The position numbers and the translations under genes are program-made. Under the pieces are notes generated by a model. That model did no database searches and was not told the DNA's origin. It was given only the letters and a program-made list of their open reading frames with translations. From contig NW_025766975.1 in NCBI RefSeq assembly GCF_003918875.1, positions 1,058,684 through 1,122,683 of the forward strand: a stretch of DNA of 64,000 nt, in the 5' to 3' direction. Position 1 is the stretch's first letter. Every line of letters starts with the position of its first letter. Shown here piece after piece: positions 18,535-49,310 of the stretch. This DNA is from Haliotis rubra. Taxonomy: Eukaryota.

Positions 18535-18660
18535 TTCTCGAGTGAGTGAGTGCAGGACTGAGTGATAGTGTGAGTGGGTGAGTGAGTGAGTGAGTGAGTG
18601 CGGGAATGAGTGATAGTGTGAGTGGGTGAGTGAGTGTGTTCCACGGACGGTGGTCTGGCG
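18535..18660. repeat. (GAGT)n-rich microsatellite block
   Basis: gagtgagtgagtgcaggactgagtgatagtgtgagtgggtgagtgagtgagtgagtgagtgcgggaatgagtgatagtgtgagtgggtgagtgagtg. A homologous block lies at 12060-12130 and 12430-12500. Confidence 0.85.
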
Positions 18661-26098: not shown

Positions 26099-29000
26099 GT
26101 TGGTCCCTGCCTGGCGCTCGGCATTAATGGGAACAAAAAGGACTGGTCGGCTTGGAGTCAGTATAATGTGTCTGAGTGGGGTATTCATGCTTCACTGCTG
26201 CATGGTATCTCAGTGGGCTAGCACTATAAAACCAGCTTCAGTCTGGGCTAGTACAAGCAGCTGCACATACACATACACACGCATGCACGTCGTCATATGA
26301 GCGAAATATTCTCAAGCACGACGTTAAACCCAATTTCACCTCCCCTCACCGTTACCAGCTCATATTGGAACATATAAAGCAAATATTAAATAACACTGCA
26401 TTGACACACTGATCGCACACCCTCAGGCTTTCAGAATACACGTTCGATGAATGTTTTTCATTAAACATAAAACATTATACAGCATTTTTGCTGTTTGCCG
26501 CAGCTGACGGCATGAGTTATTCCTGTGATTGTTGCTTTTGGTTCCCTGTTATTTCCTCTGCTCCAGTAATGCGTTTATCCTTTGCCGAGAAATTTGACTC
26601 AAGATGTCCATGGCAGAAAGAGGCCGACACAATGACTGCTAGTTGTAAATTATGCATTGTGTCTAGGCACGAACATAGCTGGATAAATAAAAGTAAAAAT
26701 ACTATTTCCATATTCATAAGAAATATTTTCTAAAATCAGAGTCGATTGAACGATCCCGACATTATCATTAGCATGTGAATCATCTTCAGTTATAACTGAT
26801 GCTTAAGTTAGCTGGCAACGTAGAGCAAAACGTTTTCTTGAATATCTCGCCAAATTATGTCCAAGGTAGACAAGATTATTTAAACCTTCAAAGCTTAGAG
26901 AATTCACATTTAGAGCCCCGTAGCATGAAAAAAATTAGAATAAGTGTACCATACCAATAAAGTATATTTTCTTGCATTTTGTTTCGTGTGAAGCAATGGA
27001 AAACATTTTGTTATTGAGTATGAATTGTAGGAATACTTGATTTTACGAATCACTGAAACATGCTCTGGCTACGAATACTAATACCCCATGGTAATGTATA
27101 TAAAACACCTTAAATTACTGCACATATTATATGGATATTTTCATGAATACATGCTTATGATATCGTTGGAATCATGCAACGCTCCGATAGTTCTTATGGT
27201 TATGGAAATGCTTGTGTTTGGCTTTAGATAAGTGTCTGTCCGAGGAAATGGTCCACGCGATGTAAGGTTATGTAAATGCTGGCAATATTAATTCATAACG
27301 TTCTAAACGAAACGAAAGTTCGAAATCCATAATTATGTATAATATTGTTCACTGTGGAAGAACGTACTACTTACATTTGTATAGATAACCGTTTAGATCA
27401 GTCGTTTTATTTCTTGAGAAAGAAATTCATTTCAACGGAATCACGGCAATCCTAGCGTTTATTGGTGTTCAATCGTTTTTTATCAACTTGTAACGTTGAA
27501 ATCAATTTCAAGTGGATCTGAAATAGACACACACATGTGACTGACATAGGATCCGAATATATAATGGCAATCTGAGGACAAAGAAAGACTTCTGGTTTGC
27601 TATGCAAGCTTCCATTCCTTCAGCTTGAGAAACATGTATTTCCTTAGAATCATTGAAACCCTCCAGGTCTGTCCGATTCAGGAGGATTTCTTGTACCGTC
27701 ACCGAATCCTGGTAATCCAGTGTACGTGATCAGGAAAGCGTTTACCATATTGATGTTCCATAATGATGATACCGATTGAATAATAACTTCTACAACAGTT
27801 CTTCCAACGGCTGTTTAGGACATTCAGGGATCAATAATGACAGTTTTATGTCACTTATCTGCTTCAAAGAATCCATGCGTGAGAGAGAGAACGGAATTCG
27901 AAATATCCGTGTCGAGTACTAGTAACTCCCCATGTCTTAATAAATGTATAGATTTGAATGAATGTGTTTTTACTTGTAAAGACTGATGATAACGTGCGGC
28001 TACTAACAAGGAATTATTTGATGACACGTTTCTATTAAGTGTGTATTATATGGGTAATTGGCAAATTCTTCGTTGTTGACAACCAGCAGCTGATCCAGAT
28101 CAATATTACCAGCATAGGCGGGTGTATTCAATAAACGATTTTTTATACTGAGTGTTGTAAAAGCTCCAAAGAGTGTGCATTATTATATTGTTTCGCTCAT
28201 ATTACTTGTTATAATTAACAGACGCTTTTGTTACAAAACGGGTAAAAAGTGCGGAATTGGATATATTTGAAGCAATTGTAAAATCTGAAACTCTGTCTAA
28301 CTAACTTTATAGAACTTACTTTGTTTGACCAGTTGTATTATTTGTTTTGCATATTCAAATCCAACTGGTATATAAAGTATACTTGAACACGTTAATGATA
28401 CGATATTTAAAGAGAGATACATATAAATGTGATATTTCCAACTGCTGTTAATCGCAGATCCTTTGTGATGCCTCTGACGAGCTCCCGATACAAAGTTTAT
28501 TGGTGACATATACTAACCCTGTAGATTGCTTCTCTCATGGATGTGTTTGCTTTCACTCACAAGCCATTCCCCTCGTCAAACATAATCTTCAATTACCTAG
28601 GCATACTGTCTCCATACCGCCATGGCAGCAAAGGAAGTAGAAGAGGACAGTCCGGAAGGCAATAGTTTGTTACGACGTGATCAAGTAAATCATGTTCCGT
28701 TTGATTGAATATAAATGCAAACATCAGTTGTTAATCCAATGAAAAATGTAATGGCATACAATCTGTGACAAACTATTTCCAGGCTGGACTAGGTTGGTAT
28801 CAACTGTAATCCCACACCAAACCTTGTGTATTCGTCTTCGATTCCTGTCATTGAAATGGCATACATAGAGTGAAGGCAATATAGAGCAAAAACGTTTCTA
28901 GAAACCTACATCCATGAATCATGTTTTATGGTTTTCTTTTTCGATTTTTCTGAAAACATTAGATCTTACGCTGTATTTTAAACCTTTGATATTTCCACAG

Positions 29001-29954
29001 CGGACATAAATCCATCATGGATTAAATAACGGTTCATTTCGGTAAGTGAGTCATTTATAAATGCCATTACCTTTTTGAAACGGACAACAGTTGTTCAAAA
29101 TGCGCTGATTAAGATTGATATCCATGTGAAAGAATCCCGAAATATGGCTTAAATAAATGATGGATGGCGTATCTAAAGATAATGGAGTTTTGAAAGAGTT
29201 GGTATACAAGACAGATGTACATGTTTTCTCAAAAGAGGGGAGGAAGGTAATTCTGAAAACACTTCATTTTATTAGATGTTAGCAAACGAGAGGATCAGTC
29301 TTTCTAAATATGTACATGATACAATGGCTTATGCTTGATGGAATAGGTACATCCAGAACGGGATGCTTGTCGTATTTATCCTTGACAAAGATGAAGCAGT
29401 TGATTCATCAAAGTAGACCAAAGACGGATGTTTGTTTTGTTTCGTTTGGTGATGAAACCATCTCCCGAGGAAAAATGGTCCTGACAGAGAAAGATGGGTG
29501 ATTGTGCTTGTCTATTGGACCTCATGACATAACTGACTCTTCCATCAATTTGGAATTGCATCGTAGTGTCAGATATATGTTTTAATCTTGAAGTGTACTA
29601 TATGAACATCGGTAGAAGTATAACAGACATCCGTGTTGCCTTGCCTTGTGGACATTTGCCCAGAATGACGCAGGTACTTATCAAGGTCCTCTCCAACTCT
29701 GAACGTGTTTATGAGTCTCTATCAACTAATGACGACACCAATTGAGCGTGAAATCAATATCATTTGTTTCAAACAGACAGTCGTTATATGCCTATATTAC
29801 CGATTGAGATGTGTTGTCAAAGTGAATAACCTGAAGGTGTTCCACACAGTGTCAAGTCAATCAGCTAGAGAATGTTCAAGCTCAATGCTGAACGGTGACA
29901 AGCTTTTATTTCACAACCACGCATTAACACAATCGCTGAGAAGGTATTTTCCTA

Positions 29955-30127
29955 GACTGACTGACTAACTGAGTTTAGTTTTACGCCGCTTTTAGCAATA
30001 TTCCAGCAATATCACGGCGGGGGAGACCAGAAATCGGCTTAACACATTGTGCCCAGGTGGGGAATCGAACCCGAGTCTTCGGCGTGACGAGCCAACGCTT
30101 TATCCACTAGGCTACCCCACCGCCCCG
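29955..30127 (-). mobile_element. SINE family A copy with (GACT)n tail, in dup copy 1
   Basis: gactgactgactaactgagtttagttttacgccgcttttagcaatattccagcaatatcacggcggg...ggggaatcgaacccgagtcttcggcgtgacgagccaacgctttatccactaggctaccccaccgccccg. Confidence 0.8.
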
Positions 30128-31254
30128 TATTTTCCTAGAGCTAGCGAGTATTGTTAACAGAGAGGTTTAGCTTCGTTCATTGTGTAGAGAAGTATCGATT
30201 CGAATAAAATGGAACCTTTGTAAGGCGTAGTATTTCTTCCGACGTTAATTAATTTTGACATAAAACATCGCAATCATAGCCCTCGATAGTTACTGTCAAC
30301 ACGAATGCTGAGTCAATCTAATGTCGACCTCAAATTGCCCTAAAAAAGTGATTGACAGAAACTTTCCAGAGTTGTTTTGATTAACTTTCGTGAACTTGCT
30401 GATTGGTTTCTTTCCAACCTTTGCATGTACCTTGCGATCAAATATTGATTGGGAATGTGATGCAGGGCTAAACAGGTTTGTTGAGCTGATAGAATAGCAT
30501 TTAATTAGTTTTTATTGGTAACATGATGCCAATATTATCTAGGAAAAGATTATGATATTTTGTGCTATTCGTTTAATTGAGTACATTATCTGATTCATCA
30601 TTTGAACTCGAAAACCCCCGATATTTTCCAAAAATGGAACTACATGCCGTTATGAATTACTCAATAAGATTTTGAAATAGGGGAGTGGCATATTTCATCA
30701 TTGTTAATGGCACTCAAATAATTACATTTCCATGTACGCTTCATGCTTGTTAGTTTCTACCAACAGGTTGGTGATTTCAAAGGGCGTCGTACAACCTTTG
30801 TTCAAAAGGTGTCTCATGAAGGTTATGATATTAGGGAACTTAGTGAAGCTTTCAAAACGTTTATGGTAGACATGTGTTTTTTTTCCAGATTTGACGCTTC
30901 AGTAACACACTGATGTCTGATGCAATTGCTTGTGACATAATGTTGTTGCTCCATGTCATCAGCGGGCCTCACCCTTCACGTGCACGTTACTGTATAACCA
31001 TCAATAAGTCAGGGGCACTGAGTACATATATAGTATGAAGTATATTTCGATAATACTATTGACTTTCACATTATACTCTATCGAAAGGGGCCTGCACTTT
31101 GCCCAGTACTCTTTCTCTTTGCAATTTGCTCAACAGACTTGTGTTTCTTATGTATGTCAACAACAGCAACAACAAAAACCGGATGGGCAAAAAATCTAGG
31201 TCACTGCCAATGCAACATGTCGGTAACACACGTGGTTATCTTCGGAGGGAGCTG

Positions 31255-31690
31255 GTTTTGTTCTAGTTTTGTTTACAACAATAACTTAAGATGTTACTTC
31301 CAAATATTCTTTAAGCCACTGCCTGTAAAAAACATTTCCCAGTGTTACAAAAAAGAGCTTCCTGGTTTGTTTGGCAGAATTTGAGGTGCCCCAAGGAGAC
31401 ACTGAAATGGAGTATATCATCCATCGTAGCAGTTGGTATTTCTTCCTGTTTTGTTTATAACAATGGGTTGGAATACAATAAGATATTATTTTAGTCTTGT
31501 TCAATAAAATCTCGACAACAAATACTAGCATTGACTGTATAATCCATTCCTCAGTGTAACAAGAAAGATCATCTTGGTTTGTTTGGCCGAATCTAAGGTC
31601 CCCCAATGGGACACTGAAATGGAGTTTAATATCAATTGACGTTGAAACAAGTGGGAGCTTAACACCACCGAAGATATAAAGAACAATCAA
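31255..31690. repeat. ~218-bp tandem repeat x2 (also 39790-40225 in copy 2)
   Basis: ...tgtttggcagaatttgaggtgccccaaggagacactgaaatggagtatatcatc... at 31364 matches ...tgtttggccgaatctaaggtcccccaatgggacactgaaatggagtttaatatcaa... at 31582. The motif tgttttgtttacaacaat precedes it at 31262 and 31448. Confidence 0.8.
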
Positions 31691-31969
31691 TTCGCTGTCA
31701 GTACAATTACAATGGGAAACCCATGGGAGGACATCACTCAATGTATTTTATTCTTTCCGTATTTTTTAGTCGTAGTACATTTGTGAAGTTTAATTGCTGG
31801 CTGAAATTGCGTACAATCGCCAGCAGCTAGACGAATGGTGTAAATCCGACTGGGAACCCCTGCAAGAAGCAGAAATCCCCAGTTTGGTGACCAAACTTTG
31901 TTTGATGTTGATCTTCAGTCCAGTTTTATACTGTGTTGCTGGATAACAATTTAATGTTTTAAAATCGTC

Positions 31970-32212
31970 TCAGACTAATCTTAAGTATAATTTGTGATAA
32001 TCTACACTAGACGCCAAAAGAAACGTTACCATCCTTCCTGAATGACTGAGGTACCTATCTTCAGCTGGCGTTGTGATGCTCGGACGACCACTTCTTGGTC
32101 TGTCTACGGTGACTCCAGTCGGTCTGGAGCCCTGAATATGTCTTATAACCGTGATACGGTGGCATCCGAGGGCGTTGGCAACGGCAATGTATTTCGACCC
32201 CATCTGCACCAT
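31970..32212 (-). pseudogene. Tc1-like transposase N-terminal (HTH/GRPR) fragment, solo
   Basis: Minus-strand ORF ...IAVANALGCHRITVIRHIQGSRPTGVTVDRPRSGRPSITTPAEDRYL... matches the Tc1/Sleeping-Beauty motif ...ISKRL.V.RS.V..IV.KY...G......RSGRPRKTTPR.DR.I. No DDE domain follows it. Confidence 0.65.
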
Positions 32213-32502
32213 CCCAATGGCCCTTTCTCTCTCTTCAGCTGTTAATCGTGGCGTATTTCTCGTACTTGTGTATCATATCATGTATTCTAGGTTCTCTTCA
32301 TACCCTATAGAATCATTCTACATTTGAAATGATTGCAAATATTGTTTGAATATTGCTGCGTTTTGGCGATTGCTATTGCTATGTGTAAACAGAAAATGGA
32401 ACAATGTTACTTTGCAAGCAAAATATTAACAAAGATAATGTAAGATGTTCCTAAACATTTTTTTCATAATATCAAAGACACGTTTAACTTGTTTTCATTA
32501 AT

Positions 32503-32750
32503 AAGTGAGTGAGTGAGTGAGTTTAGTTTTACGCCGCACTCAGCAGTATTCCAGCTATATGACGGCGCTTTGTAAATAATCGAGTCTGAACCAGACAATT
32601 CAGTGATCAACAGCATGAGCATCCATCTGCGCAATTGGGAATCGATAACATGTGTCAACCAAGTCAGTGAGCCTGACACCCGATCCCGTTAGTCGCCTCT
32701 TACGACAAGCATGGGTTACTGAAGGCTCATTCTAACCCGGACCCTCACGG
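32503..32750 (-). mobile_element. SINE family B with 12-bp TSD (gttttcaYtaat)
   Basis: Full B consensus. Flanking direct repeats gttttcattaat (32491-32502) and gttttcactaat (32751-32762). Confidence 0.85.
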
Positions 32751-35700
32751 GTTTTCACTAATGCAAATCAGCAAAAAATGTTTTAAAAGACTGAAATCAT
32801 AGGAATGATTATTTTACAATTTTACACACTCTACAACAGTTGTTTCTTGTTTTAAAGGTTGAAAAATTGTGGCTTTTAATGGTTTATCTTTGTCCCAAAG
32901 CAGATTTTATTGCAGCCTTTCTTTTGGACATCTAAATCACTATTATTGGTTGAGTTTGGCGTGGACGAAAATAGGACAATTTAACTCTTCTGAAAAAGAT
33001 GCATTTCACCTAAATGTGAATGCATTTGAGAATTTGTTTTCGTGATTTGCATAAATCTGTTGTTAAGCTTTCTTGAAAGCTAATACCTTCTAACATATCC
33101 TTGATATTTTCTAAGTAATTCATAAAGGTAGGAGGGTAACTTTTCTTTTGGCGTTTAGTGTTTGTGTTGTCTTTCGACGATAGGTTTCCATACAGTAAAA
33201 ATCTCAGAATTAGTAATTAATGATTTTCTGTCGGCATGATATATGGCTGCCTGTGACGTGGAATGTGAACGCACTCTGATGGGAGAAAGAGAATACAATT
33301 CCAGTGATAGCTGCAAAAGAAACCTAGCAGTAGACTGGATATCAAAGGTGTAATCGTCACACAACCGCTTGAAGAGAGATGCATGCACTTGCCCACTTAT
33401 GTAGTTTCAATACATTCTTGAACGTTTCACACAATGGTGCATAAACCTTTTTCAAATATTGTAACTTCCACACCTATGCTTACATTCCATAGCAAATTAT
33501 TCTTACATCCTTCCATCAAACTTTAACAAAGACAATGTAATACAACATAAACAGTGTTCACAAATGTATTAAACTAACGCTCCGATAGTTCTTATGGTTA
33601 TTGAAATGCTTCTGTTTGGCTTTAGATAAGTGTCTGTCCGAGGAAATGGTCCACGCGATGTAATGTTATCTTAATGCTGACAATATTAATTCATAACGTT
33701 CTAAACGAAAACGAAAGTTCGAAATCCAAAATTATGTATAATATTGTTCACTGTGGAAGAACGTACTACTTACTTTTGTATAGATAACCGTTTGGATCAG
33801 TCGTTATTTCTTGAGAAAGAGATTCATTTCAACGGAATCACGGCATTCCTAGCGTTTATTGGTGTTCAATCGTTTTTTGGATCTGAAATAGACACACACA
33901 TGTGACTGACATAGAAAGGATCCCATTATACAATGGCAATCTGAGGACAAAGAAAGACCTCTGGTTTGCTATGTAAGCTTCCATTTCTTCAGCTTGAGAA
34001 ACATATATTTCCTTAGAATCCCTGAAACCCTCCAGGTCTGTCCGAAGGATACCTGATTCCTGGTACTCCAGTGTACGTGATCAAGAAAGCGGTTACCATA
34101 TTGATGTTCCATAATGATGATACCGATTGAATAATAACTTCTACAACAGTTCTACCAACGGCTGTTTAGGACATTCAGGGATAAATAATGACAGTTTTAC
34201 GTCACATCTATGCGCGAGAGAGAGAACGGAACTCGAAATGTCCGTGTCGAGCACTAATAACTCCCCATGGCTTAATAAATGTATAGATTTGAATGAATGT
34301 GTTTTACGTGCAAAGACTGATGATAACGTGCGGCTACTAACACGGAATTATGTGATGACACGTTTCTATTAAGTGTGTATTATATGGGTAATTGGCAAAT
34401 TCTTCGTTGTTGACAACCAGCAGCTGATCCAGATCAATATTACCAGCATAGCTGGGTGTATTCAATGAACGATTTTTTATACTGACTGTTGTAAAAGCTC
34501 CAAAGAGTGTGCATTATTCTATTGTTTCGCTCATATTACTTGTTATAATTAACAGACGCTTTTGTTACAAAACGGGTAAAAAGTGCGGAATTGGATATAT
34601 TTGAAGCAATTGTAAAATCTGAAACTCTGTCTAACTAACTTTATAGAACTTACTTTGTTTGACCAGTTGTATTATTTGTTTTACATATTCAAATCCAACT
34701 GCGATATAAAGTATACTTGAACACGTTTATGATACGATATTTAAAGAGAGATACATATAAATGTGATATTTCCAACTGCTGTTAATCGCAGATCCTTTGT
34801 GATGCCTCTGACGAGCTCCCGATACAAAGTTTATTGGTGACATATACTAACCCTGTAGATTGCTTCTCTCATGGATGTGTTTGCTTTCACTCACAAGCCA
34901 TTCCCCCTCGTCAAACATAATCTTCAATTACCTAGGCATACTGTCTCCATACCGCCACGGCAGCAAAGGAAGTAGAAGAGGACAGTCCGGAAGGCGATAG
35001 TTTGTTACGACAGGACAGTTAATCATGTTCCGTTTGATTGAATATAAATGCAAACATCAGTTGTTAATCCAAGGAAAAATATAATGGCATACAATCTGTG
35101 ACAAACTATTTCCAGGCTGGACTAGGTTGTTATCAACTGTAATCCCACACCAAACCTTGTGTATTTGTCTTCGTTTCCTTTTATTTAAATGGCATACATA
35201 GAGTGAAGGCAAAATAGAGCAAAAACGTTTTTAGAAACCTAAATCCATGAATCATGTTTTATGGTTTTCTTTTTCGATTTTTCTGAAAACATTAGATCTT
35301 ACGCTGTATTTTAAACCTTTGACATTTCCACAGAGGACATAAATCCATCATGGATTAAATAACGGTTCATTTCGGTAAGTGAGTCATTTATAAATGCCAT
35401 TACCTTTTTGAAACGGACAACAGTTGTTGAAAATGCGCTGATTAAGATTGATATCCATGTGAAAGAATCCCGAAATATGGCTTAAATAAATAATGGATGG
35501 CGTATCTAAAGATAATGGAGTTTTGAAAGAGTTGGTATACAAGACAGATGTACATGTTTTCTCAAAAGAGGGGAGGAAGGTAATTCTGAAAACACTTCAT
35601 TTTATTAGATGTTAGCAAACGAGAGGATCAGTCTTTCTAAATATGTACATGATACAATGGCTTATGCTTGATGGAATAGGTACATCCAGAACGTGATGCT

Positions 35701-36081
35701 TGTCGTATTTATCCTTGACAAAGATGAAGCAGTTGATCCATCAAAGTAGACCAAAGACGGATGTTTGTTTTGTTTCGTTTTGTGATGAAACCATCTCCCG
35801 AGGAAAAATGGTCCTGACAGAGAAAGATGGGTGATTGTGCTTGTCTATTGGACCTCATGACATAATTGACTCTTCCATCAATTTGGAATTGCACCCTAGT
35901 TTCAGATATATGTTTTACTCTTGAAGTGTAAAATATGAACATCGGTAGAAGTATAACAGGCGTCCGTGTTGCCTTGCGTTGTGGACATTTGCCCAGAATG
36001 ACGCAGGTACTTATCAAGGTCCTCTCCAACTCTGAACGTGTTTATGAGTCTCTATCAACTAATGACGACACCAATTGAGCG

Positions 36082-38286
36082 GGTTAGGTCTACTAATGCC
36101 TACAGGGAATAATGCCTACAGGGAATAATAGCTACAACGTTTGCAGTGACAGCGATACGCTTACCTGCACACAAGTAGATTGTTCCACTTAGTGTGCACT
36201 ATTGCCTACAAAGGGATTAGGGGAGGCCAGCAAGGAGAGTAAAGAGTAAGATCAAGAGTATTAAATCGTTAGCTAGCTTATGTTTTGATAATTCCATACG
36301 CATTTAGTTCTCACCCGAGAAGGAAATTGAAGAGTAAAGTAATTAATAGAGAGAGATTATTAAAGGGAGAAGGAAATGTATTGCTTTAAAATTCTTGTGA
36401 TACAAATCTTCATTGCAAATCATGGCAAATCCCAAGAAAGTCGAATACTTCACATCACAGAAAGGAGGACAGCAGGTACTCTTGGAGGGGATACCGCTAC
36501 AGACTCAACAACAGGCGACAGACGTGTGTACACTGGAAGTGTGTTCAAGGTGGCTGCTTTGGCAAGTGTACGACAGTCGGAATCAGACCCCACACAACCA
36601 CCCACAAGAAGACCAGGTAGCCCTGAAGATTGCCAGTTCCCTGAGGCAGCGGGTACAGACTGAGACGACGCCAGTTCAGGTGATCTACGATGAGGAGATT
36701 TCCCGACTTGACCGAGGTGAAGCAGCAACAGTCAAGTCGTTCCATTCTATGAAGAGTGGACTCTACAAGCAGAGACGGAAGATGATGCCGCCACTTCCCC
36801 AGACGCTCAGCGAGGTGAATCTACCCGACTTATTCAAGGAGACTACAGATGGACTGCCCTTCCTCTGCATTGATGACGGTGATGATGACAAGATTCTCTG
36901 CTTCGCCAAAAGTGACCGCCTGACCCTCCTGCAAGAAGTGGACACCCTCTACATGGACGGCACCTTCTACTCCTGTCCTCCTCTCTGGGATCAGCTGTAC
37001 GTCATCCATGGCCTAGTCGGAGGGAAGATGACCCAGTTGGTCTTCTGTCTACTGCCGAATCGTCAACGCCGCACCTATGAACGCCTGCTACGTCTCCTGA
37101 ACGACAAGATCCAGCAGACAACGGGATCGCCCCTTCAGCCTGATGTCATCCAGACGGATTTCGAAATCGCTGCCATCAACGCTGTTGAGACCGTCTTCCC
37201 CAACTGCGACGTCCGTGGATGCTATTTCCACTACAGCCAGGCTCTCTGGAGGAAAGTACAGAACCTCGGCTTCAGCGAAGCCTACCAGCAGGATCCTGAG
37301 GTCCACAGATGGGTCCGACGAGCAGCAGCACTCCCCTCCTCCCAGTGGCCATGGTACAAAATGCCTGGATAGAGGTCATGGACGACGCCCCTGCCATTGG
37401 ACAGAAGGATGAGTTCCAGGACTACATCACCAGCACCTGGGTAGACGACCATGCACGGTTCCGAGCCGGACTATGGAATCACCACGACACCAGCGGCCCA
37501 AGGACGAACAATCATCTCGAGGGTTGGCATTCGCATCTCAACAAGACCGTCCAGAGAGCCCACCCGAACATTTTCGCTCTTGTGAAGGTTCTGCAGAAGC
37601 TGGAGAAAGCGGAGAGAAATAAGCTGGTGCAGATGGCTCATGGCGCCCGTCCCCCACCCTGCAAGAGGACGTACACAGAAATTGACCAGAGACTCACTCG
37701 TCTGAAGGCCCAGCTGACATCTGGTATCAAGGCACCCCTGGAATTCCTGACTGCTGCAGGATATTTGATCAAGCTAGTTTGAAAACCAAATGACTATGTT
37801 GATGAATGTGTGAAACTGTGTGTATACATGTAAATTACTTTTGGTTACCACAATGACTTTATTAATGAATGTGGTAGTTGACTGTGTGAAAGATGTATAT
37901 ATGTATATATAATCATGAATCAAATTAAGTTTTAATTACATTTTAATCCAAATAAATGATTATGTTTATTTATGTAAATTTATTTATCTCAAAACAAACT
38001 ACTATGTGAAAGATATGAATAAAGTTTAAGAAAATTAAGAAAAATATGACAACAATGTGAAAGATATGTATATGAATGTACATATGTATATGAATGACCA
38101 AATAAAATGTCTCTCAACATAGAAAGTTACTGTTTTCTATATACTGTAGGCATTAGTGCACTTTGAAATAGGACCATGCCACTTTATTGAAAGGTTGAAG
38201 GCAGGTGCAATTAGCAGCACTGGTGCGTAAAGTTGTTTATTTAACACTGTAGGCATTATTCACTGTAGGCATTAGTAGACTCCACC
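36082..38286 (+). mobile_element. Mutator-like (MULE) DNA transposon, 2205 bp, with TIRs and 8-bp TSD
   Basis: Left end ggttaggtctactaatgcctacagggaataatgcctacagggaata. The reverse complement of the right end is ggtggagtctactaatgcctacagtgaataatgcctacagtg (42-bp TIR with an internal 17-bp subrepeat). TSD attgagcg at 36074-36081 and 38287-38294. The empty site caccaattgagcgtgaaatc is intact at 29738-29757 in the paralogous copy. Confidence 0.85.
36413..37782 (+). pseudogene. MULE transposase (frameshifted; ORFs 36413-37372 and 37309-37782)
   Basis: DGTFYSCPPLWDQLYVIHG...CLLPNRQRRTYERLL...IQTDFEIAAINAVETVFPNCDVRGCYFHYSQALWRKVQ... and, downstream, ...WNHHDTSGPRTNNHLEGWHSHLNK... are diagnostic MULE/Mutator transposase motifs. 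The reading frame shifts by 1 nt within 37300-37370 (the ctcccctcctccc tract). The N-terminus (KVEYFTSQKGGQQVLLEG...C..W) is weakly FLYWCH-like. Confidence 0.8.
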
Positions 38287-38504
38287 ATTGAGCGTGAAAT
38301 CAATATCATTTGTTTCAAACAGACAGTCGTTATAAGACTATATTACCGATTGAGATGTGTTGTCAAAGTGAATAACCTGAAGGTGTTCCACACAGTGTCA
38401 AGTCAATCAGCTAGAGAATGTTTAAGCTCAATGCTGGACGGTGACAAACTTTTATTTCACAATCACGCATTAACACAATCGCTGAGAAGGTATTTTCCTA
38501 GACT

Positions 38505-38673
38505 GACTGACTGACTGAGTTTAGTTTTACGCCGCTTTTAGCAATATTCCAGCAATATCTCGGCGGGGGACACAAGAAATGGGCTTAACACATTGTGCCC
38601 ATGTGGGGAATCAAACCTGGGACTTCGGCGTGACGAGCCAACGCTTTAACCACTAGGCTACCCCACCGCCCCG
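38505..38673 (-). mobile_element. SINE family A copy (paralogue of 29955-30127)
   Basis: Identical structure and position in dup copy 2. Confidence 0.8.
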
Positions 38674-40527
38674 TATTTTCCTAGAGCTAGCGAGTATTGT
38701 TAACAGAGAGGTTTAGCTTCGTTCATTGTGTAGAAAAGTATCGATTCGAATAAAATGAAACCTTTGCAAGGCGTAGTATTTCTTCCGACGTTAATTAATT
38801 TTCACATAAAACATCGCAATCATAGCCCTCGATAGTTACTGTCAACACGAATGCTGAGTCAATCTAATATCGATCTCAAATTGCCCTAACAAGTGATTGA
38901 CAGAAATGTTCCACTGGCAAAACTGAGTTGTTTTGATTAACTTTCGTGAACTTGCTGATTGGTTTCTTTCCAACCTTTGCATGTACCTTGCGATCAAATA
39001 TTGATTGGGAATGTGATGCAGGGCTGGACAGGTTTGTTGAGCTGATAGAGTAGCATTTAATTATTTTTTATTAGTAACATGATGCCAATATTATCTAGGA
39101 AAGATTATGATATTTTGTGCTATTCGTTTAATTGAGTACATTATCTGATTCATCATTTGAACTTGAAAAAAATGATATTTTCAAAAAGGGAACTACATGC
39201 CGTTATGAATTACTCAATAATATTTTGAAATAGGGGAGTGGCATGTTTCATCATTGTTAATGGCACTCAAATAATTACTTTTCCATGTACGCTTCATGCT
39301 TGTTAGTTTCTACCAACAGGTTGGTGGTTTCAAAGGGCGTCGTACGACTTTTGTTCCAAAGTTGTCTCATGAAGGTTATGATGTTAGGGAACTTAGTGAA
39401 GCTTTCAAAACGTTTATGGTAGACATGTGGAGGTATTTCCAGATTTGACGCTTCAGTAACACACGGATGTCTGATGCAATTGCTTGTGGCATAATGTTGT
39501 TGCTCCATGTCATCAGCGGGCCTCACCCTTCACGTGCACGTTACTGTATAACCATCAATAAGTCAGGGGCACTGAGTACATATATAGTGTGAAGTATATT
39601 TCGATAATACTATTGACTTTCACATTATACTCTATCGAAAGGGGTCTACACTCTCCCAAGTACTATTTCTCTTTGCAATTTGCTCAGCAGACTTGTGTTT
39701 CTTATGTATGGCAACAACAGCAACAACAAAAACCGGATGGGAAAAACATCTAGGTCACTGCCAATGCAACATGTCGGTCACACACGTGGTTATCTTCGGA
39801 GGGAGCTGATTTTGTTCTAGTTTTGTTTACAACAATAACTTAAGATGTTACTTCCAAATATTCTTTAAGCCACTGCCTGTAAAAACCATTTCCCAATGTT
39901 ACAAAAAAGAGCTTCCTGGTTTGTTTGGCTGAATTTGAGGTGCCCCAAGGAGACACTGAAATGGAGTATATCATCCATCGTGGCAGTTGGTTTTGTTCCT
40001 GTTTTGTTTCTAACACTGGGTTGGAATACAATAAGATATTATTTTTTTCTTGTTCAATAAAATCTCGACAACAAATACTAGCATTTCCAGCAGCTGTATA
40101 ATCCATTCCTCAGTGTAACAAGAAACATCATCTTGGTTTGTTTGGCCGAATCTGAGGTCCCCCAATGGGACACTGAAATGGAGTGTAATATCAATTGACG
40201 TTGAAACAAGTGGGAGCTTAACACCGCCGAAGATATAAAGAACAATCAATTCACTGTCAGTACAATTACAATGGGAAACCCATGGGAGGACATCACTCAA
40301 TGTATTTTATTCTTTCCGTATTTTTTAGTCGTAGTACATTTGTGAAGTTTAATTGCTGGCTGAAATTGCTTACAATCGCCAGCAGCTAGACGAATGGTGT
40401 AAATCCGACTGGGAACCCCTGCAAGAAGCAGAAATCCCCAGTTTGGTGACCAAACTTTGTTTGATGTTGATCTTCAGTCCAGTTTTATACTGTGTTGCTG
40501 GATAACAATTTAATGTTTTAAAATCGT

Positions 40528-40770
40528 CTCAGACTAATCTTAAGTATAATTTGTGATAATCTACACTAAACGCCAAAAGAAACATTACCACCCTTCTGAA
40601 TGACGGAGGTACCTATCTTCAGCTGGCGTTGTGATGCTCGGACGACCACTTCTTGGTCTGTCTACGGTGACTCCAGTCGGTCTGGAGCCCTGAATATGTC
40701 TTATAACCGTGATACGGTGGCATCAGAGGGCGTTGGCAACGGCATTGTATTTCGACCCCATCTGCACCAT
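40528..40770 (-). pseudogene. Tc1-like N-terminal fragment (paralogue of 31970-32212)
   Basis: Same sequence at the paralogous position. The antisense ORF 40600-40803 mirrors ORF 32042-32245. Confidence 0.6.
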
Positions 40771-41040
40771 CCCAATGGCCCTTTCTCTCTCTTCAGCTGT
40801 TAATCGTGGCGTATTTCTCGTACTTGTGTATCATATCATGTATTCTAGGTTCTCTTCATACCCTATAGAATCATTCTACATTTGAAATGATTGCAAATAT
40901 TGTTTGAATATTGCTGCGTTTTGGCGATTGCTATTGCTATGTGTAAACAGAAAATGGAAAAATGTTAACAAAGATAATGTTAGATGTTCCTAAACATTTG
41001 TTTATTATATCAAAGACACGTTTTACTTGTTTTCACTAAT

Positions 41041-41273
41041 AAGTGAGTGAGTGAGTTTAGTTTTACGCCGCACTCAGCAGTATTACAGCTATATGACGGC
41101 GGTCTGTAAATAATCGAGTCTGGACCAGACAATCCAGTCATCAACAGCATGAGCATCCATCTGCGCAATTGGGAACCGATGACATGTGTCAACCAAATCA
41201 GCGAGTCTGACACCCGATCCCGTTAGTCGCCTCTTACGACAAGCATGGGTTACTGAAGGTTCATTCCAACCCG
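41041..41273 (-). mobile_element. SINE family B (paralogue of 32503-32750, with a 10-bp deletion at the head)
   Basis: Same TSD gttttcactaat on both sides. The head ends ccaacccgg|ttttcactaat instead of ccggaccctcacgg. Confidence 0.85.
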
Positions 41274-42106
41274 GTTTTCACTAATGCAAACCAGCAGAAA
41301 ATGTGTTAAAAAACTCAAATCATAGGAATGATTATTTTACAATTTTACACACTCTACAACAGATGTTTCTTGTTTTAATGTTTGAAAAATTGTGACTTTT
41401 AATGGTTTATCTTTGTCCCAAAGCAGATTTTATTTCAGCCTTTCTTTTGGACATCTAAATCACTATTATTGTTTGAGTTTGGCGTGGACGAAAATAGGAC
41501 AATTTAACTCTTCTGAAAAAGATGCATTTCACCTAAATGTGAATGCATTTGAGAATTTGTTTTCGTGATTTGCATAAATCTGTTGTTAAGATCTCTTGAA
41601 AGCTAATACCTTCTAACATAATATCCTTGATATTTTCTAAGTAATTCATAAAGGTAGGAGGGTAACGTTTCTTTTGGCGTTTAGTGTTTGTGTTGTCTTT
41701 CGACGATAGGTTTCCATACAGTAAAAATCTCAGAATTAGTCATTAATGATTTTCTGTCGGCATGATATATGGCTGCCTGTGATGGAATGTGAACTCACTC
41801 TGATGGGAGAAAGAGAATACAACTCCAGTGATAGCTGCAAAAAGAAACCTAGCAGTAGACTGGATATCAAAGGTGTAATCGTCACACAACCGCTTGAAGA
41901 GAGATGCATGCACTTGCCCACTTATGTAGTTTGTACATTCTTGAACGTTTCACACAATGGTGCATAAACCTTTTTCAAATATTGTAACTTCCACACCTAT
42001 GCTTACATAGCATAGCAAATTATTCTTACAACCTTCCATCAAACTTTAACAAAGACAATGTAATACAACATAAACAGTGTTTACAAATGTATTAAACTAC
42101 CACATA

Positions 42107-43407
42107 CAGTACAACCAGAAATTATTGAGAATTTAAAGATTGTAATTTTTTATATTATTTTCACTCATTACTCACGTATTAAATGTGAATATTAGCAGAA
42201 CATAACTCCAGATTCAAAGACAGGTGAACAGTTAGTATTTTGTCAAGTCACCATGGGCAGCAATGCAGGCTTCAATGCGGCGGGGCATACTACTGATCAA
42301 AGAAGTTAGAAAGTCGTGGTCCATGCTGTCCCAATATCGGACCACCTCTTCTTTCAATTCAGCAATATTTGTCAGATTTTTCTTATTGACACTTTCCTTC
42401 ATAAGTCCCCAAACATTTTCTATTTGATTTAGGTCAGGGCTATAGCTTGGCCAATCTTATAATGTCATATTTTGGGTCCGAAACCAGGCCTGTGAATGCT
42501 TTGAACGATGTTTTGGGTCGTTGTCCTGCTGGAAAATCCAAACATTTCCATAGAACACGTGAGCAGATGGAAATAAATGTCCCTCGAGAATATTTGTGTA
42601 CCGCTCACTGTTCATATTCCCTTCAAATACACAGAGGGGCGTTGCCCCTAACACAGATATGCCACACCACACGTTAAATTTCGGACTGTACTTTGGGCGC
42701 TGATACAAAGGTCTTTCAGTTTGTTTGGTCCAGAATTTCAGTGTATTAGGAAACAGCCACACAGAACTTTCATCTGAGAAAATCACATTGTCCCAGTTAA
42801 AATTTCTATGCTGTAAGCACCAGTTCAACCTTCGCTCCTTTTGTTCAGGTTTCATGATCGGTGATGGAATTCCTCGACTTTTCTACCAACCCATTGCATG
42901 CAGCTCAGTTCTTATTGTCTCCTTACAGACAGCCACAGTTCCTCTATCAATCATATCCAGCCTTAAGTTTTCTAAACGCCTTCGTTTGTTTTTAGAAACA
43001 AGAATACCAAGCCGCCTCCTGTCACCGACAGTCAATTTTCTGGGCCTACCTGCGCCTCCCTGGTGCTCAATGCCATATCCATTTGCAATATTTTCAAAAC
43101 ACGATAAACAGTGGACAAAGGGATGCCTGTTCTACTTGAAATCACTTTAGCTGATCTGATGTCCTTGTTATAATACTCTAAAATCAACTTCCTCTTCTCT
43201 AAATCATCCATACTGAGGATCACTGAAAATGTCGTCTGCTAGCAAGTAAACAAAGGGGGATAACTCTTCACAAACTAATGAAAAAGGGTTAACGGAGTTG
43301 TCTCTCTTGAATGAAACCAAACACTTGATAGCTGGTCAAGGTTGTTTATACTAGAAATCCAATTATTAAACATATTCCTAAAATTCTCAATAATTTCTGG
43401 TCATACT
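42107..43407 (-). mobile_element. Tc1-like DNA transposon with TIRs and TA target site
   Basis: Left end TA|cagtacaaccagaaattattgagaattt. The right end is aaattctcaataatttctggtcatacta|TA, whose reverse complement is tagtatgaccagaaattattgagaattt. It encodes a full-length Tc1 transposase on the minus strand. Confidence 0.85.
42232..43223 (-). pseudogene. Tc1-like transposase, about 330 aa, with at least 2 frameshifts
   Basis: N-terminus MILSMDDLEKRKLILEYYNKDIRSAKVISSRTGIPLSTVYRVLK (HTH). Middle QKERRLNWCLQHRNFNWDNVIFSDESSVWLFPN...NVWCGIS...FQQDNDPKHRSK (DDE). C-terminus in a third frame, ...PSYSPDLNQIENVWGLMKESV...SMPRRIEACIAAHGDLTKY*. The span of 992 bp is not a multiple of 3. Confidence 0.85.
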
Positions 43408-43994
43408 ATAGCATAACGCAAAGGCTTCAAACATATTGTATTACTGATTTCAGGAAGTATCGGAGAAACAAAAGCCCCCTTTGGTCAGTCACAAAGTCAA
43501 AATTAATACATCACAACAGAATGGACCGGACAATTGATATAGGGATGACTGGGTCTTAGACAATCAGGGTAGGGTCATGGAAGACACATAATATTTGGGG
43601 TTGGTTATTTGAAAGGCATCATCTTTATAATGAAATATATGGTTCTTTTAGCATTTTATCTTCATGGGGGGTTATAAAATTGAACATGGAGATAGGGAGA
43701 GTCATTAACAATATTACAAGAACTCGGGGAGGGTAATTATTTCCAGTACATTTGTTCGGGCAAAAAAATATCTGAAACACCCTCCGTTACTAAATGACCG
43801 GTCTCTAAATGGAGGTTTTGTGTGATAGAAAGTCCTAGGATATACAGCTCTAAGACGACGAGACTCGGGAAAGTAAGCCGACAGATATTTTACTTTGATG
43901 TACAAATTATTGACTAATAAACTAACACAAAGTAGAGATAACTGTAATCTGCTCGGAGCCAACTATAATCCAGCCCAACAGAAGACGTCCATAC

Positions 43995-44520
43995 GTACGA
44001 ATTGGAATATCTTAAGAACCGTTGACTGGATTCTTTTCATATTTGGTACCTAGGTTCATCACAGTAAAAGAAAGGTCCCAGTCAGGTTTGGTGACCTTGA
44101 CCGTCATTTCAAGGTTACAAGTGGACTTTAACGTCTTACCCTTGTCAGCAAGATATCTCAAGAACCGTTCCTTGGATTTTCTTCATATTCAACACCAACC
44201 TTTATCTAGGGAAGGTGCAGGGCCCAGTCGACCTTCACTTAATTTTCAAGTTCACGGCGACACTTTAAACATTTCAGCAAGTTAAGCTGCATCTAAAGAT
44301 TGTCAGCGAGATATCTAAGGAACCATTCACTGGACTTTCGTCATATTTGACACCACGCTTCATCTAGGGAAGGTGCAAGCTCCAGTCAATTGTGGTGACC
44401 TTCATATGATGTTCAAGGTCACAGCGACACTTTGAAGATTTCAGCATGTTAAACTGCATGTTAAGATTGTCAGCGAGATATCTCAAGAACAGTTCACTGG
44501 ATTTTCTTCATAGACTTTCA
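43995..44520. repeat. Satellite-like tandem repeat, ~145-168-bp unit, ~3.3 copies
   Basis: The block ...gatatctcaagaac[c/a]gttc[c/a]ctgga[c/t]tttc[t/g]tcata[t/g]... recurs at 44007, 44152, 44308 and 44476. The block agggaaggtgcagggcccagtcgaccttca / agggaaggtgcaagctccagtcaattgtggtgaccttca is also repeated. Confidence 0.8.
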
Positions 44521-44704
44521 AGACTTCCCTTAAATGTATTTCACTAAGCAATTTCTTTATTACTATTTTTGTATATTTCATACACTAAGACATTCATGTC
44601 AAGGTGAAAGCGAGGTTTGACTGGTCATGTTTTTGTTGACATTTAACTTCATCTTAAATTACGACCCTCGATTTCATTACTTTTAGGTTTGATTTGATAA
44701 TTTG

Positions 44705-44952
44705 CGGCGGGGGATTATGTCACCTTAGTGACAATGCTTGTTCTCATGCACTTCTCCAGCTATATGGCGGCAATCTGTAAATAATCGAGTTTAGACCAGA
44801 CAATCCCATGACCAACAGCATGATCATCGATTAGGATACGATGGCATGTGTTACAAAAGTCAGCGAGTCTGACCACCCGATCCCGATAGTCGCCTCTAAC
44901 GCAAGCATGTACTGTTGACGACCCTTTCTAACCCAAATCTTCACGTGTCTCC
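44705..44952 (-). mobile_element. SINE family B copy
   Basis: cttctccagctatatggcggcaatctgtaaataatcgagtttagaccagacaatcccatgaccaacagcatgatcatcg...gtcgcctctaacgcaagcatg. Confidence 0.8.
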
Positions 44953-45300
44953 CGTTACTCTTGAAAACGTGAGAAGGGGCCTTCGAGACTGTATTCTCAA
45001 TCGTTGCAGTGCTGAATGGGGTTGCTATCGTACAATTCTCTAGCGGTCTGTTTTCTCAAGGTTCAAGGATACATGACGCATTAATTATATTTATAGGTGT
45101 GGTGTGGTGAAAAAGGATATACATTGTATTACTGCTTTCAGGAGCTATTAGTGAGCACACTTTGGTCTGTCACAGAGGGTATCAAGATAACTAATCAAGA
45201 CATAAGGAACTGACCATTCTATTCCAGGGGATGGTAGGTCATTTGGTGTAGGGGATGACTGCATCTTAGAGAATCAGGTGCCGGTCATGACAGAAGATAC

Positions 45301-45333
45301 ACATTTATTTATTTATTTATTTATTTATTTTTG

Positions 45334-45384
<51 letters not shown>

Positions 45385-45391
45385 TGTGTGT
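45301..45391. repeat. Compound microsatellite (ATTT)6-(GT)~28
   Basis: atttatttatttatttatttattttt followed by gtgtgtgt...gtatgtgtgtgtgtgtc. The minus-strand ORF 45321-45545 (THTHTH...) is an artefact of this repeat. Confidence 0.95.
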
Positions 45392-45559
45392 CATTTGGAT
45401 AAGATAATTCATAATAAAACATAAAGTTGTTTTTGGAGTGTTTCTTTGTCATGGAGGGTGATAAATAACAGTGACTGACAATCCAGTGATTGACATCATG
45501 AGCACCAATGTACACAGTCGGGGTGTGATGACATGCAGCAACCAATCTAGCGAGTCTGT

Positions 45560-48250
45560 CCGACAGTAGAAATATCTAACCGCCGTGTCTGTTCTATACT
45601 GCTTAAACTCCTGATTGTCCGCTTAGTCCCTCCTCCAGGAGAGGGGGGTAAACTGCACAATCACGTCAAAGTATTACCTGCTTTAATTGAATGGATACTA
45701 AAAACATCTATGTTTTAAACACTTGGATGCATTTGTCTTAAATATCAAAGCAAAGTTTACTTTGGTAGATTTGAGATAGATCCAGGAGCTTCGTAAAAAG
45801 TTTCCCTTGCAATGTTTGTTGGTGACCTTAACGACTCGGTGTATCAAGGTTTACTTCTGTCATTAGACGCTCCTCTGCTCGTCGAACATAGTCTTTAATT
45901 TAACAAGGCTCACAGCAGGAGACCACTGGCTGACAGCTCGTCCAGGCACGACAATGAAATGGAATCATTTAATGCAAATGTCAGCCCAAACTAAGCAAAA
46001 TGTTATATCATATATACACAGGGGAAACTTCAGCAGGTTAGACAAGGTTAATCAAAACGTCAAAGCCTATGTAGCATGAAATATTGAGTTTTCGTCTATG
46101 TCAATGGACCGATAGTCTTTAGAAGTTAATGAAAACCTACTCTCGTAAATCATGTTCACGGACATACTTTCGTTGTGGGTAATGACAATCATTGTCATGG
46201 ATCTTTATCTATAAACTCTATAGCATATTCGATCTGAATCCATATGAGTTACACAAATAATAATGTTAAGACACACGAAAATGTAATGGCATGAATTATG
46301 TGGGAAGTATGCCTATGCTGGACTAGGGTATCAACAATTGTCAAATCTCCACACAAAACCTAAAGTATTCATGCATATTTCCTTTATTAGATGACATACA
46401 TAGACATAACACAAACCAGAGCATTGTATACCTGTTTCGAGTTTTCTCAAAGCAATTCATCTTACTCCGTATCGTAAACCTTGACATTTCCACAGAGGCT
46501 GTAAATCTATCATAGATTAAATAGCCATTCATTTCAGTTCCGAATCGTTCAGAAATGCCATTACCTTTAAGACACATTTATGTTCAGACAGCAGTAGTTG
46601 ACTAAGCGCTGATTAAGATTGGTATCCACTTTCAACTACGAGGAAGAAATACGTAGTTTGAACTGATCTTGACCATGTCAGAAATACCAGTCCAAGGAAA
46701 TTCATTGTAACTGAAGAAAACATCCTCATAAATCCATGTAAACATAGTGACGAAACCATTTCCGTAATCAAAGTAATCTGAGGCCATTGTATGACTTCGA
46801 CCTCAGCACAAGCATTTGTTTATGGACCCGTGAAGATCCGGGTTAGAATTGGTCTTTTGAAACCCTGCTTGTCGTAAGAGACGACTAACTAAGGCTTGCT
46901 GAGTTGGTTGAAGCATGCCATCATATTCCAATTGTATAGATCGATGCTCATGATGTCTGTCACTGGATTGACTGGTCTAGACTCGATTATTTTACAGACT
47001 ACTGTCGTATTGCTGAGTGAGGCGTTAAACACACAAAGAAATAAAAATGTGTTTATGAATCTCTATCAACTAAGGATGATACCAGTCGAGCTAATATCAA
47101 CATTATTCGCTTGAAACATTATATGACTACATTGGCAATTGAGGTGTGTTGTTAAAGTGAATTACATGAAAATGTTCTAAGCAGTGTCAAGTCAGTCAAC
47201 TTGACAATAATTAAACTCAATGTAAACCACAACGGGAAAGCCTTTATTTAACAAATCACGCTTCAAAACAAGCGCCGAGAAGGTCTTTCAATAGAGCAAG
47301 CAAGTATAATTAACATGCATGTTTAGCTTCGTTCATTGTAGAAAAGTATCGATTCTGATAAAATGAAACCTTTGTTATGCGTTATATTTCTTCCGAAGTT
47401 AATCAGTATCAAAGCAACACCTCACAACCGTAGCCGTCGATATTGTCAACATGAATACTGAGTCAATCAAATGTCGATCTCAACTGCCGTAAAGAGTGAT
47501 TGACAGGGACATTTCCAGGTGGCGAAACTGAGCTGTTTTGATTAACTTTCGTGAACTTACTGATTGGTTTCTTTCTAATCTTCGCATGTACCTTGCGATC
47601 AAATATTGATTGGGATTTGTGATTTGGCATTTCAGGATTGTTGAGTTAATAACTATTTTTATTGGTAGCATGATGGCAATATTTTCATAGAAAACAATAC
47701 GATATTTTGTGTTTTTTTAATTTAGTACGTAATTCAATTAACCGCTTGAACAATTTATATTTTCGGAAACGGATCTACATGCCGCTATAAATTACTCAAA
47801 AGGTTTTGATAAGGCGGTGGCAGGCTTCATCAGTGTTAATGGCACTCAAATAATCACTTTTCCATGTACGCTTCATGCTTGATAGTTTCTACCAACAGGT
47901 TGGTGGTTTCAAAGAGCGTAGGACGACTTTTGCCTCAAAGTTGTTTGTTGAGGGTTTCGACATTCAAGTACGTAGTACAGCTTTCAAAACGTTTATAGTA
48001 GACATGAGGGAGGATTTCCAAATTTGATGCTTCAATAACACACTATACTTCAATAACTGTCTAATGCAATTGCTTATTTTCACAAGTGCCAATTTTATTC
48101 ACGTGTTGTTTCAGTTCATCAGTTGACCTCACTTGTCCGTGACGCCATCAATACGATAGGAGCATCGAGTACATACATAGTACAAAGTATATTTCGATGA
48201 TACTATTGACCTTCATATAATACAAATAACGTCAGATATAATAAGCTTTA
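45560..48250. repeat. Ancient diverged collinear copy of part of the 6.4-kb duplication unit
   Basis: 46270-46700 ~ 28720-29150 (about 75%) and 47040-48250 ~ 29697-31100 (about 85%), in the same order and spacing. It lacks the family-A SINE that copies 1 and 2 carry at 29955 and 38505. It is interrupted by a + strand family-B SINE at 46771-47035. Confidence 0.7.
46771..47035 (+). mobile_element. SINE family B, sense orientation, with extended head
   Basis: gaggccattgtatgacttcgacctcagcacaagcatttgtttatggacccgtgaagatccgggttagaattggtc...gactactgtcgtattgctgagtgaggcgttaaacac. Confidence 0.8.
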
Positions 48251-48364
48251 TACACTTATTTGACTTTTATTGTTTTATTGTTGTTTGGTAAACATTCTGG
48301 AAGTTGGTCAGTCATAATGAAGCAGACAACGTTAAGGCTGCAATAAACAAGAAGTTGTATGCTT

Positions 48365-48590
48365 CATTGTTGTTTTTATTGTTGTTTTGACGCCGAACCT
48401 AGCAATATTGCAGACACATGTAAACAGTCGACTCTCGACCAGGCTATCTAGTAATTGACAGCACGAGTACTACTGCACGCAGTCGGGATTTGATGAAATG
48501 CATCAACCAAGTTAGCGAGCCTGTTCACTAGATCCTGTTATTCGCCTGTTACGAAAAGGCGTCCGACAGCAGAAATATCGAACCACGGCT
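48365..48590 (-). mobile_element. SINE family B, old diverged copy
   Basis: gacgccgaacctagcaatattgcagacacatgtaaacagtcgactctcgaccaggctatctagtaattgacagcacgag...tcgcctgttacgaaaaggc. Confidence 0.55.
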
Positions 48591-49310
48591 TCTGTTGAAA
48601 CGCTTGACAGCTTACTTATTGTACATATCAGCATGAGAGAGTGCAATAAACTACACAATCACGTCACAGTATTACCTGCTTTAATTGAATGGATACTAAA
48701 ACAGCTATCCTTTATACACTTTACTGAATGTATTTTTCTTTACTACCAATTTAAGCAAAGATCTGAGATAGATCAGGGAGCTTCGACCAAGTTTTCCCTT
48801 GCAATGTTTGTTGGTAATCTTAACCGACTCGGTGTATTAGGTTCGTGATGACGCTATTTGCTTTCTGTCATTAGACGTTCATCTGCTCGTCAAACGTAAT
48901 CTTCAATTTCCTGAGGATCTTGACAAGGCTTACACAGTCTTACGACAGTAGGAGACCAGTGGCGGACAGCTCGTTCTAAAGCAGGCTGTTTGTCTGGGCG
49001 TGACAATGAAATGGAATCATTTAATGTAAATGTCAGCCCAAACTAAGCAAAATGTTATATCGTGTATATACACACAGGAAACATCAGCAGGTTAGACAAG
49101 GTTAATCAAAACGTCAAAGCCTATGTAGCATGAAATATTGGGTTTTCGTCTATGCCAATGGACCGATAGTCTTTACAAGTTAATGAAAACCTACTCTCGT
49201 AAATCATGTTTCCGTGTTCACGGACATACTTCCGTTGTGGGCGATCATCATTGTCATGGATCTTTATCTATTACATCCATACCACGATCGATCTGAATCC
49301 ATATGAGTAG
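48590..49310. repeat. Second diverged copy of the 45560-46270 segment (~88% identity)
   Basis: ...cacaatcacgtcacagtattacctgctttaattgaatggatactaaaa...gacaatgaaatggaatcatttaatg...atctgaatccatatgag. A shorter third copy lies at 62040-62390. Confidence 0.8.

Follow-up and report, generated by a model that had tools for sequence, protein, structure and literature searches.

We analysed a 64,000-nt stretch of Haliotis rubra DNA (contig NW_025766975.1, positions 1,058,684 to 1,122,683; hereafter the window, numbered from its first letter), in which a locus between about 27 and 49 kb holds duplications of three different ages: a young pair of adjacent units and, to their right, two older and more diverged partial copies, termed old copies A and B. 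Most probably, transposon-rich DNA with no coding function was duplicated segmentally here more than once, as a neutral process, in a mollusc-like genome. The kind of event is already well known, being ordinary tandem duplication, and it has little significance beyond the locus; its interest is as a clean worked example of how duplications can be ordered by target-site duplications (TSDs) and empty insertion sites.

The young pair consists of two direct, adjacent copies with neither spacer nor gap between them, and its outer flanks are unique.

27179 to 33576, plus strand: young tandem unit 1, 6,398 bp, delimited by self-BLAST and boundary sequences.
33577 to 42099, plus strand: young tandem unit 2, 8,523 bp, of which 2,203 bp are a Mutator-like element (MULE); delimited in the same way.
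33570 to 33583: head-to-tail junction, ...AAACTA|ACGCTCC..., with microhomology of 1 nt (A) and neither filler nor repeat.

Comparison of the window with itself recovered both copies (27178-29748 against 33576-36081, and 29736-33576 against 38283-42099, both E=0). An earlier note on this DNA had placed two adjacent copies at 27175-33580 and 33581-42100, and the exact limits lie no more than 5 bp from these. Its figure of 97-99% identity was overstated: with the MULE removed, a global alignment over 6,281 aligned bases gives 96.6% (94.4% with gaps), 28 indel events over 147 columns and a Kimura two-parameter (K2P) distance of 0.035, and 97-99% is reached in some 200-bp windows of the alignment only. 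Both units share insertions that predate the duplication, namely a short interspersed nuclear element (SINE-A) with the same TSD, a second SINE (SINE-B) and a Tc1 relic. By its adjacency, orientation, unique flanks and shared insertions, the young pair is a tandem head-to-tail segmental duplication.

Divergence of this size also bears on whether the young pair could be an assembly artefact, with two divergent haplotypes set in tandem and the MULE a presence/absence polymorphism between them. Differences of this order (about 3.4% substitutions, 28 indels, one transposon) lie in the range of allelic divergence reported for non-coding DNA of highly heterozygous molluscs. The divergence nevertheless exceeds the genome-wide heterozygosity typical of abalone. 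The window has no N or gap, and the join is clean, with unique flanks on both sides. Furthermore, an unrelated array nearby (2094-22395) points to genuine tandem duplication in the region: it has three copies and so cannot be a two-haplotype artefact. We consider a haplotype artefact very unlikely.

Old copies A and B, together with two repeats that they carry, lie to the right of the young pair.

45799 to 48223, plus strand: old copy A, collinear with unit positions 28480-31076; the full period of A runs from about 45481 to 48445.
48446 to 49320, plus strand: old copy B, partial, corresponding to the first 780 bp of A with an offset of 2,965 bp.
45968 to 46260, plus strand: family C, a repeat of about 300 bp present in old copies A and B (in B at about 49020-49320) and absent from the units.
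46669 to 47045, minus strand: SINE-B-type element private to old copy A, 377 bp, with 78.8% identity to 2772-3166 in reverse orientation.

Four blocks of the unit recur in old copy A in the same order and orientation. The first (28480-28602 to 45799-45909) is a weak local alignment, with a score of 20 against a shuffle maximum of 16, while the other three (28686-29124 to 46219-46628, 29702-29956 to 47046-47295, and 30127-31076 to 47283-48223) have BLAST E-values from 2e-38 to 5e-176. The collinear older copy that had been proposed at 45560-48250 is therefore real in these four blocks, but its leftmost part, 45560-45799, has no detectable similarity to the units, and only weak similarity was found across 45799-46219. 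Its proposed identity of 75-85% was too high: aligned bases of old copy A agree with the units at 71-80% of positions, or 62-73% once gaps are counted (64-76% by BLAST; K2P 0.24-0.37). No homology to the old copies was found for the unit head (27179-28480) or tail (31077-33576). The private SINE-B-type element stands, within 46629-47045 of A, where the 578-bp unit segment 29125-29701 would be; this segment has no counterpart in A, either through a deletion that accompanied the SINE-B insertion or through two independent insertions.

The further partial copy reported at 48590-49310 is old copy B, and it proved to be longer: 48446-49308 matches 45481-46249 (E=4e-148). A weak collinear remnant of B can be seen at 49848-49938 (score 24 against a shuffle maximum of 17), and A and B each have an adjoining SINE-B fragment at the same relative position. 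The K2P distances fall into three tiers, 0.035 between the units, 0.17 between A and B, and 0.24-0.37 between the units and A, and hence indicate three duplication episodes rather than two. The view that duplications of different ages are nested at this locus thus holds for the difference in age, but it implied two tiers where three are measured. Old copy B split from A well after the unit lineage and A had separated and well before the young duplication. Family C, being found in A and B and not in the units, serves as a marker for the time that separates the oldest split from the duplication that gave A and B.

Pieces of the old segment also occur elsewhere in the window. Family C has a solitary copy of about 76% identity at 62098-62400, which shares sequence with B beyond the point where A diverges. 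An inverted copy, at 67-73% identity, of a 160-bp core piece (30773-30928 in unit 1, 47907-48027 in A) lies at 23860-24019, and all four copies of this piece carry the stretch AGCTTTCAAAACGTTT almost unchanged.

Such scattered pieces would be expected if A, B and the two fragments (23.9 and 62.1 kb) were independent insertions of a non-autonomous dispersed repeat and the young pair alone were truly segmental, and the window is indeed very repeat-rich. However, the four blocks hold their order and orientation over 2.4 kb, within 17 kb. Neither a TIR (terminal inverted repeat), an LTR (long terminal repeat) nor a TSD could be detected where the shared segment ends (about 45799/48223 and 28480/31076), and this segment has no coding capacity. 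The SINE-B fragment at equal relative positions in A and B is what segmental copying predicts, rather than transposition, and the 300-bp piece, which the units do not have, looks like an insert in its own right. The dispersed-repeat explanation is accordingly an unlikely one, and segmental duplication remains our preferred reading of the old copies.

Transposon insertions place these duplications in relative time. Dating duplications by shared and nested transposon insertions, through TSDs and empty sites, is standard practice, and the present case matches it fully: a SINE shared with the same TSD is older than the young duplication, and a private MULE with an empty paralogous site is younger.

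29957 to 30126, minus strand: SINE-A of unit 1, 170 bp, tRNA-derived, tail at the left end, with TSD GTATTTTCCTAGA at 29944-29956 and 30127-30139.
38503 to 38672, minus strand: SINE-A of unit 2, 93.5% identical to that of unit 1, with the identical 13-bp TSD GTATTTTCCTAGA at 38490-38502 and 38673-38685.
47283 to 47295: empty SINE-A site in old copy A, a single diverged 13-mer, GTCTTTCAATAGA, located by alignment to the units.
32004 to 33161, minus strand: Tc1-like relic, in both units, with 42-nt inverted repeats and a helix-turn-helix (HTH) fragment at 31973-32212.
32506 to 32752 in unit 1, 41043 to 41281 in unit 2: SINE-B nested in the Tc1-like relic, found by self-BLAST matches.

SINE-A has a tRNA-like head (Rfam tRNA match at 30050-30121, minus strand, 32.1 bits against a gathering score of 29), a TSD and dispersed copies, others of its family lying at 962-1126 and 9325-9491; it is a tRNA-derived SINE. 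Its identical TSD in both units, together with the empty site in old copy A, dates its entry to the time between the oldest split and the young duplication. The proposal that the older copy lacks the SINE-A shared by the young copies is thus upheld by the lone diverged 13-mer. Besides SINE-A and the Tc1-like relic with its nested SINE-B, the recognisable content of the unit includes a 212-bp local repeat. SINE-A (29958-30019) and SINE-B (32506-32567) have in common a 62-nt module of 84% identity that adjoins a (TGAC)n or (TGAG)n tetranucleotide-repeat end, and the rest of the two elements differs. Modular "jigsaw" tRNA-derived SINEs have been described in gastropods and bivalves (PMC4758252), and the shared module beside a tetranucleotide-repeat end, with differing sequence elsewhere, is alike; the likeness is at the level of the module, as neither SINE was matched to a named family of that study.

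The youngest insertion is the MULE of unit 2.

36082 to 38284, plus strand: FLYWCH-MULE DNA transposon, 2,203 bp, in unit 2 only.
36088 to 36130 and 38238 to 38280: TIRs of the MULE, 43 nt, 88% complementary.
36071 to 36081 and 38285 to 38294: TSD of the MULE, (C)CAATTGAGCG and CCATTGAGCG, 10-11 bp with one indel.
29738 to 29748: empty MULE target site in unit 1, identified by boundary comparison.

The element contains a MULE transposase domain (Pfam PF10551, E=4.7e-12, 46.6 bits against a cut-off of 27.6). The best homologues of its transposase are all from Haliotis and bear FLYWCH and MULE domains; their identity is 45-50% when compared along the whole protein and reaches 78% across half of it. 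The host is therefore probably a vetigastropod mollusc. By tblastn, the element matches a 459-aa protein of Haliotis asinina over residues 1-458, and its reading frame shifts near 37322-37334. The FLYWCH-MULE transposase that it encodes is nearly complete but carries one or more frameshifts. With this domain, its TIRs, a TSD of the class of about 8-11 bp and an empty paralogous site, 36082-38284 is a MULE. The target site is uninterrupted in unit 1 and in old copy A, and so the MULE inserted after the young duplication, as had been claimed for the last event of the series. The full order proposed by the earlier note (old duplication, SINE-A, young duplication, MULE) is likewise supported by the TSDs and empty sites.

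How the young duplication arose can be judged from its junction. Comparison of the boundaries (27140-27220 and 42060-42140) gives the flanks before duplication, of which the left one reads ...ATGCA|ACGCTCC... and the right one ...AAACTA|CCACATACAGT.... There is no homology at the breakpoints: the sequence left of 27179 does not align to the unit end, nor that right of 42099 to the unit start. Because the two breakpoints share no repeat and the junction lies outside any repeat, non-allelic homologous recombination is ruled out. The junction anatomy instead points to a non-homologous event, either template switching or end-joining between sister chromatids. Tandem duplications and copy-number variants of animal genomes at the microhomology level, attributed to fork stalling and template switching (FoSTeS), microhomology-mediated break-induced replication (MMBIR) or end-joining, are alike in having head-to-tail copies with no spacer, junctions with 0-2 nt of microhomology, repeat-free breakpoints and kb size. 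All of these are matched here with no material difference, the mechanism of the present case being read from its junction anatomy. Kilobase-scale tandem duplications in this mollusc-like genome can therefore arise in the absence of repeat-mediated recombination.

The slightly unusual feature of the young duplication is that one breakpoint adjoins a transposon end.

42105 to 43410, minus strand: decayed element of the Tc1/mariner type, ending in TA on both sides, with TIRs at 42105-42160 and 43355-43410 and a DDE_3 match (E=8.7e-5).

The right breakpoint, 42099|42100, is 5 bp from the terminal TA of this 1.3-kb element. Its assignment to Tc1/mariner rests on its ends, TA-CAGTACAACC...GGTCATACTA-TA, on TIRs that start with CAGT, and on the DDE transposase match, which is weak and below the Pfam cut-off. 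Proximity of this kind would be expected by chance with a probability of about 0.2-2%, a rough post hoc estimate that depends on which transposon ends are counted. We treat the closeness as a lead rather than a finding, as it could reflect either a mechanistic link or coincidence, and it would matter only if duplication breakpoints proved to be enriched at DNA-transposon ends genome-wide.

In maize, alternative (reversed-ends) transposition of Ac/Ds elements makes tandem direct duplications whose breakpoint junctions bear the 8-bp TSD of the element and transposon termini (Zhang, Zuo and Peterson, 2013; PMC3744419). The two cases are alike in having the end of a class II transposon at a duplication breakpoint. 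In the young duplication, however, the junction 33576|33577 contains neither transposon sequence nor a TA duplication. Alternative transposition was rejected on this ground, since no Tc1 termini or TSD occur at the junction and, of the breakpoints, the outer right one alone has a Tc1 end nearby. It is conceivable, if rather doubtful, that a break or stalled fork at the Tc1 end triggered the duplication, or that a CCAAT-bearing core of the unit, described below, is a regulatory module that has been repeatedly amplified. In the Tc1 scenario, cleavage or binding by the transposase would be followed by resection of a few bases and then by joining, through 1 nt of microhomology, 6.4 kb upstream on the sister or template strand. 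If true, this would be a tandem duplication induced by a transposon end with no transposon at the junction, unlike the products of alternative transposition of maize Ac.

Taken together with the insertions and K2P tiers, repeated segmental duplication probably proceeded in five steps. An ancestral segment of at least 2.6 kb would first have been duplicated directly, a few kb away, giving the unit lineage and the "old" lineage. The old lineage would then have gained the repeat of about 300 bp, and its first 0.8 kb or more would have been duplicated again at an offset of 2,965 bp, producing A and B. In the unit lineage, SINE-A (with its 13-bp TSD) and the Tc1-like element carrying SINE-B would have been acquired next. 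The 6,398-bp block would subsequently have been duplicated head-to-tail and non-homologously, by template switching at a stalled fork or by end-joining of sister chromatids with 1 nt of microhomology. The FLYWCH-MULE would finally have entered unit 2.

We infer that these duplications were neutral in part from the coding content of the unit. A Pfam scan of all stop-to-stop open reading frames (ORFs) of at least 55 aa in unit 1 found no domain except a sub-threshold fragment of the Tc1 HTH relic, and the same ORFs had no homologue in a set of 5.8 billion proteins. For both searches the ORFs were joined with X spacers into a long query, which lowers sensitivity; even ORFs of the high-copy SINEs were unmatched, and the protein-set result is therefore uninformative on copy number. 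In Rfam, at E up to 1 over 27-50 kb, the matches were to the tRNA head of the SINE, plus two at chance level.

Two short patches of the unit are better conserved than their surroundings.

30369 to 30459: conserved patch 1, with 84 of 90 bases shared by the units and old copy A; equivalent in A at about 47530-47620.
30693 to 30782: conserved patch 2 between the units and old copy A; equivalent in A at about 47825-47914.

Patch 1 contains two CCAAT motifs on the minus strand and is identical in units 1 and 2, whereas patch 2 differs between them at two positions. The alignment of the units with A shows that the CCAAT motifs and a TGAGTCA motif are kept in old copy A. Folding of the patches was unremarkable (z -1.1 to +0.4). 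Two ORFs that are open in both the units and A were rejected as exons: 30299-30511 (minus strand) is frameshifted between units 1 and 2, and 30722-30910 (plus strand) differs at 11 of 36 amino acids with no synonymous bias. A 29-nt inverted match (76%) links family C (46030-46058) to patch 1 of A (47535-47563); it may be due to chance or hint that patch 1 derives from a related repeat.

Several points weigh against neutral, repeated segmental duplication. Each of the two patches of about 90 bp is about 93% identical against a background of 79%, with a scan-statistic P of about 0.01, and could mean constraint or gene conversion instead of pure neutrality. The same could be true of the mismatches between units 1 and 2, which are overdispersed (index 2.16, p=2e-4). 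Exons shorter than 55 aa and non-coding functions would escape the ORF scans. The two pieces of the "old" segment that recur at 23860-24019 (inverted) and 62098-62400 belong here too, and mis-assembly of the young pair was judged from the sequence itself.

The patches leave a weak hint of non-coding constraint, and the duplications might have been kept because they amplified a functional non-coding element within 30369-30459 and 30693-30782. Candidates would be a promoter or enhancer with two CCAAT boxes and a TGACTCA motif resembling sites for AP-1 or a Maf recognition element (MARE), or an unannotated transcript. The excess identity, the near-absence of differences between units 1 and 2 and the motifs retained in old copy A would fit such an element. 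Yet P is only about 0.01 per patch, the motifs are short and common, and old copy B has lost this part altogether. Neither a conserved ORF, a stable RNA fold nor an Rfam match was found for the patches. Retention for function is distinctly improbable, and neutral duplication is the reading that we retain.

The earlier note called the locus a duplication hotspot. In favour of this, the window contains a second tandem array, unrelated to the units at 27-42 kb, which brings the tandem-duplication events in the window to at least four or five.

About 2094 to 9754, 9754 to 16600 and 16680 to 22395: the three units of the second array.

The three units are 6-7.6 kb long and share 72-96% identity by self-BLAST; the only sequence that they have in common with the units at 27-42 kb is SINEs. 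Pairwise identity within the array is very uneven, ranging from 72% to 95.6%, a value reached over a 2.8-kb tract shared by the first two units; this unevenness suggests gene conversion or a nested later duplication. A duplication-prone region would account for the array, but so, equally well, would a genome where arrays of this kind are common, and a single 64-kb window cannot establish a hotspot.

The G+C content of the window is 38.4%, and mobile elements are dense in it. They include two related families of tRNA-derived SINEs, of which SINE-B has at least 11 copies in the 64 kb by self-BLAST, as well as Tc1/mariner elements, an ORF for the reverse transcriptase of a long interspersed nuclear element (LINE) and the MULE. 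Scans of ORFs against Pfam and the protein set detected no host protein-coding genes in the stretches examined, and 20 further long ORFs of the window matched transposon domains only in Pfam (RVT_1 at 50503-51606; Tc1 HTH at 58968-59381). The first, at 50500-51588 on the minus strand, is an uninterrupted ORF of 362 aa that contains a reverse-transcriptase domain (RVT_1, E=1e-12) and represents a LINE fragment, possibly a young one, which may have truncated old copy B. The second, 58968-59384, is the N-terminal HTH region of another Tc1-like transposase, with weak matches to HTH_32 and HTH_Tnp_Tc3_2. The spacer between unit 2 and old copy A also holds a tandem repeat (44142-44512) with a period of 167 bp, 2.3 copies and 79% matches.

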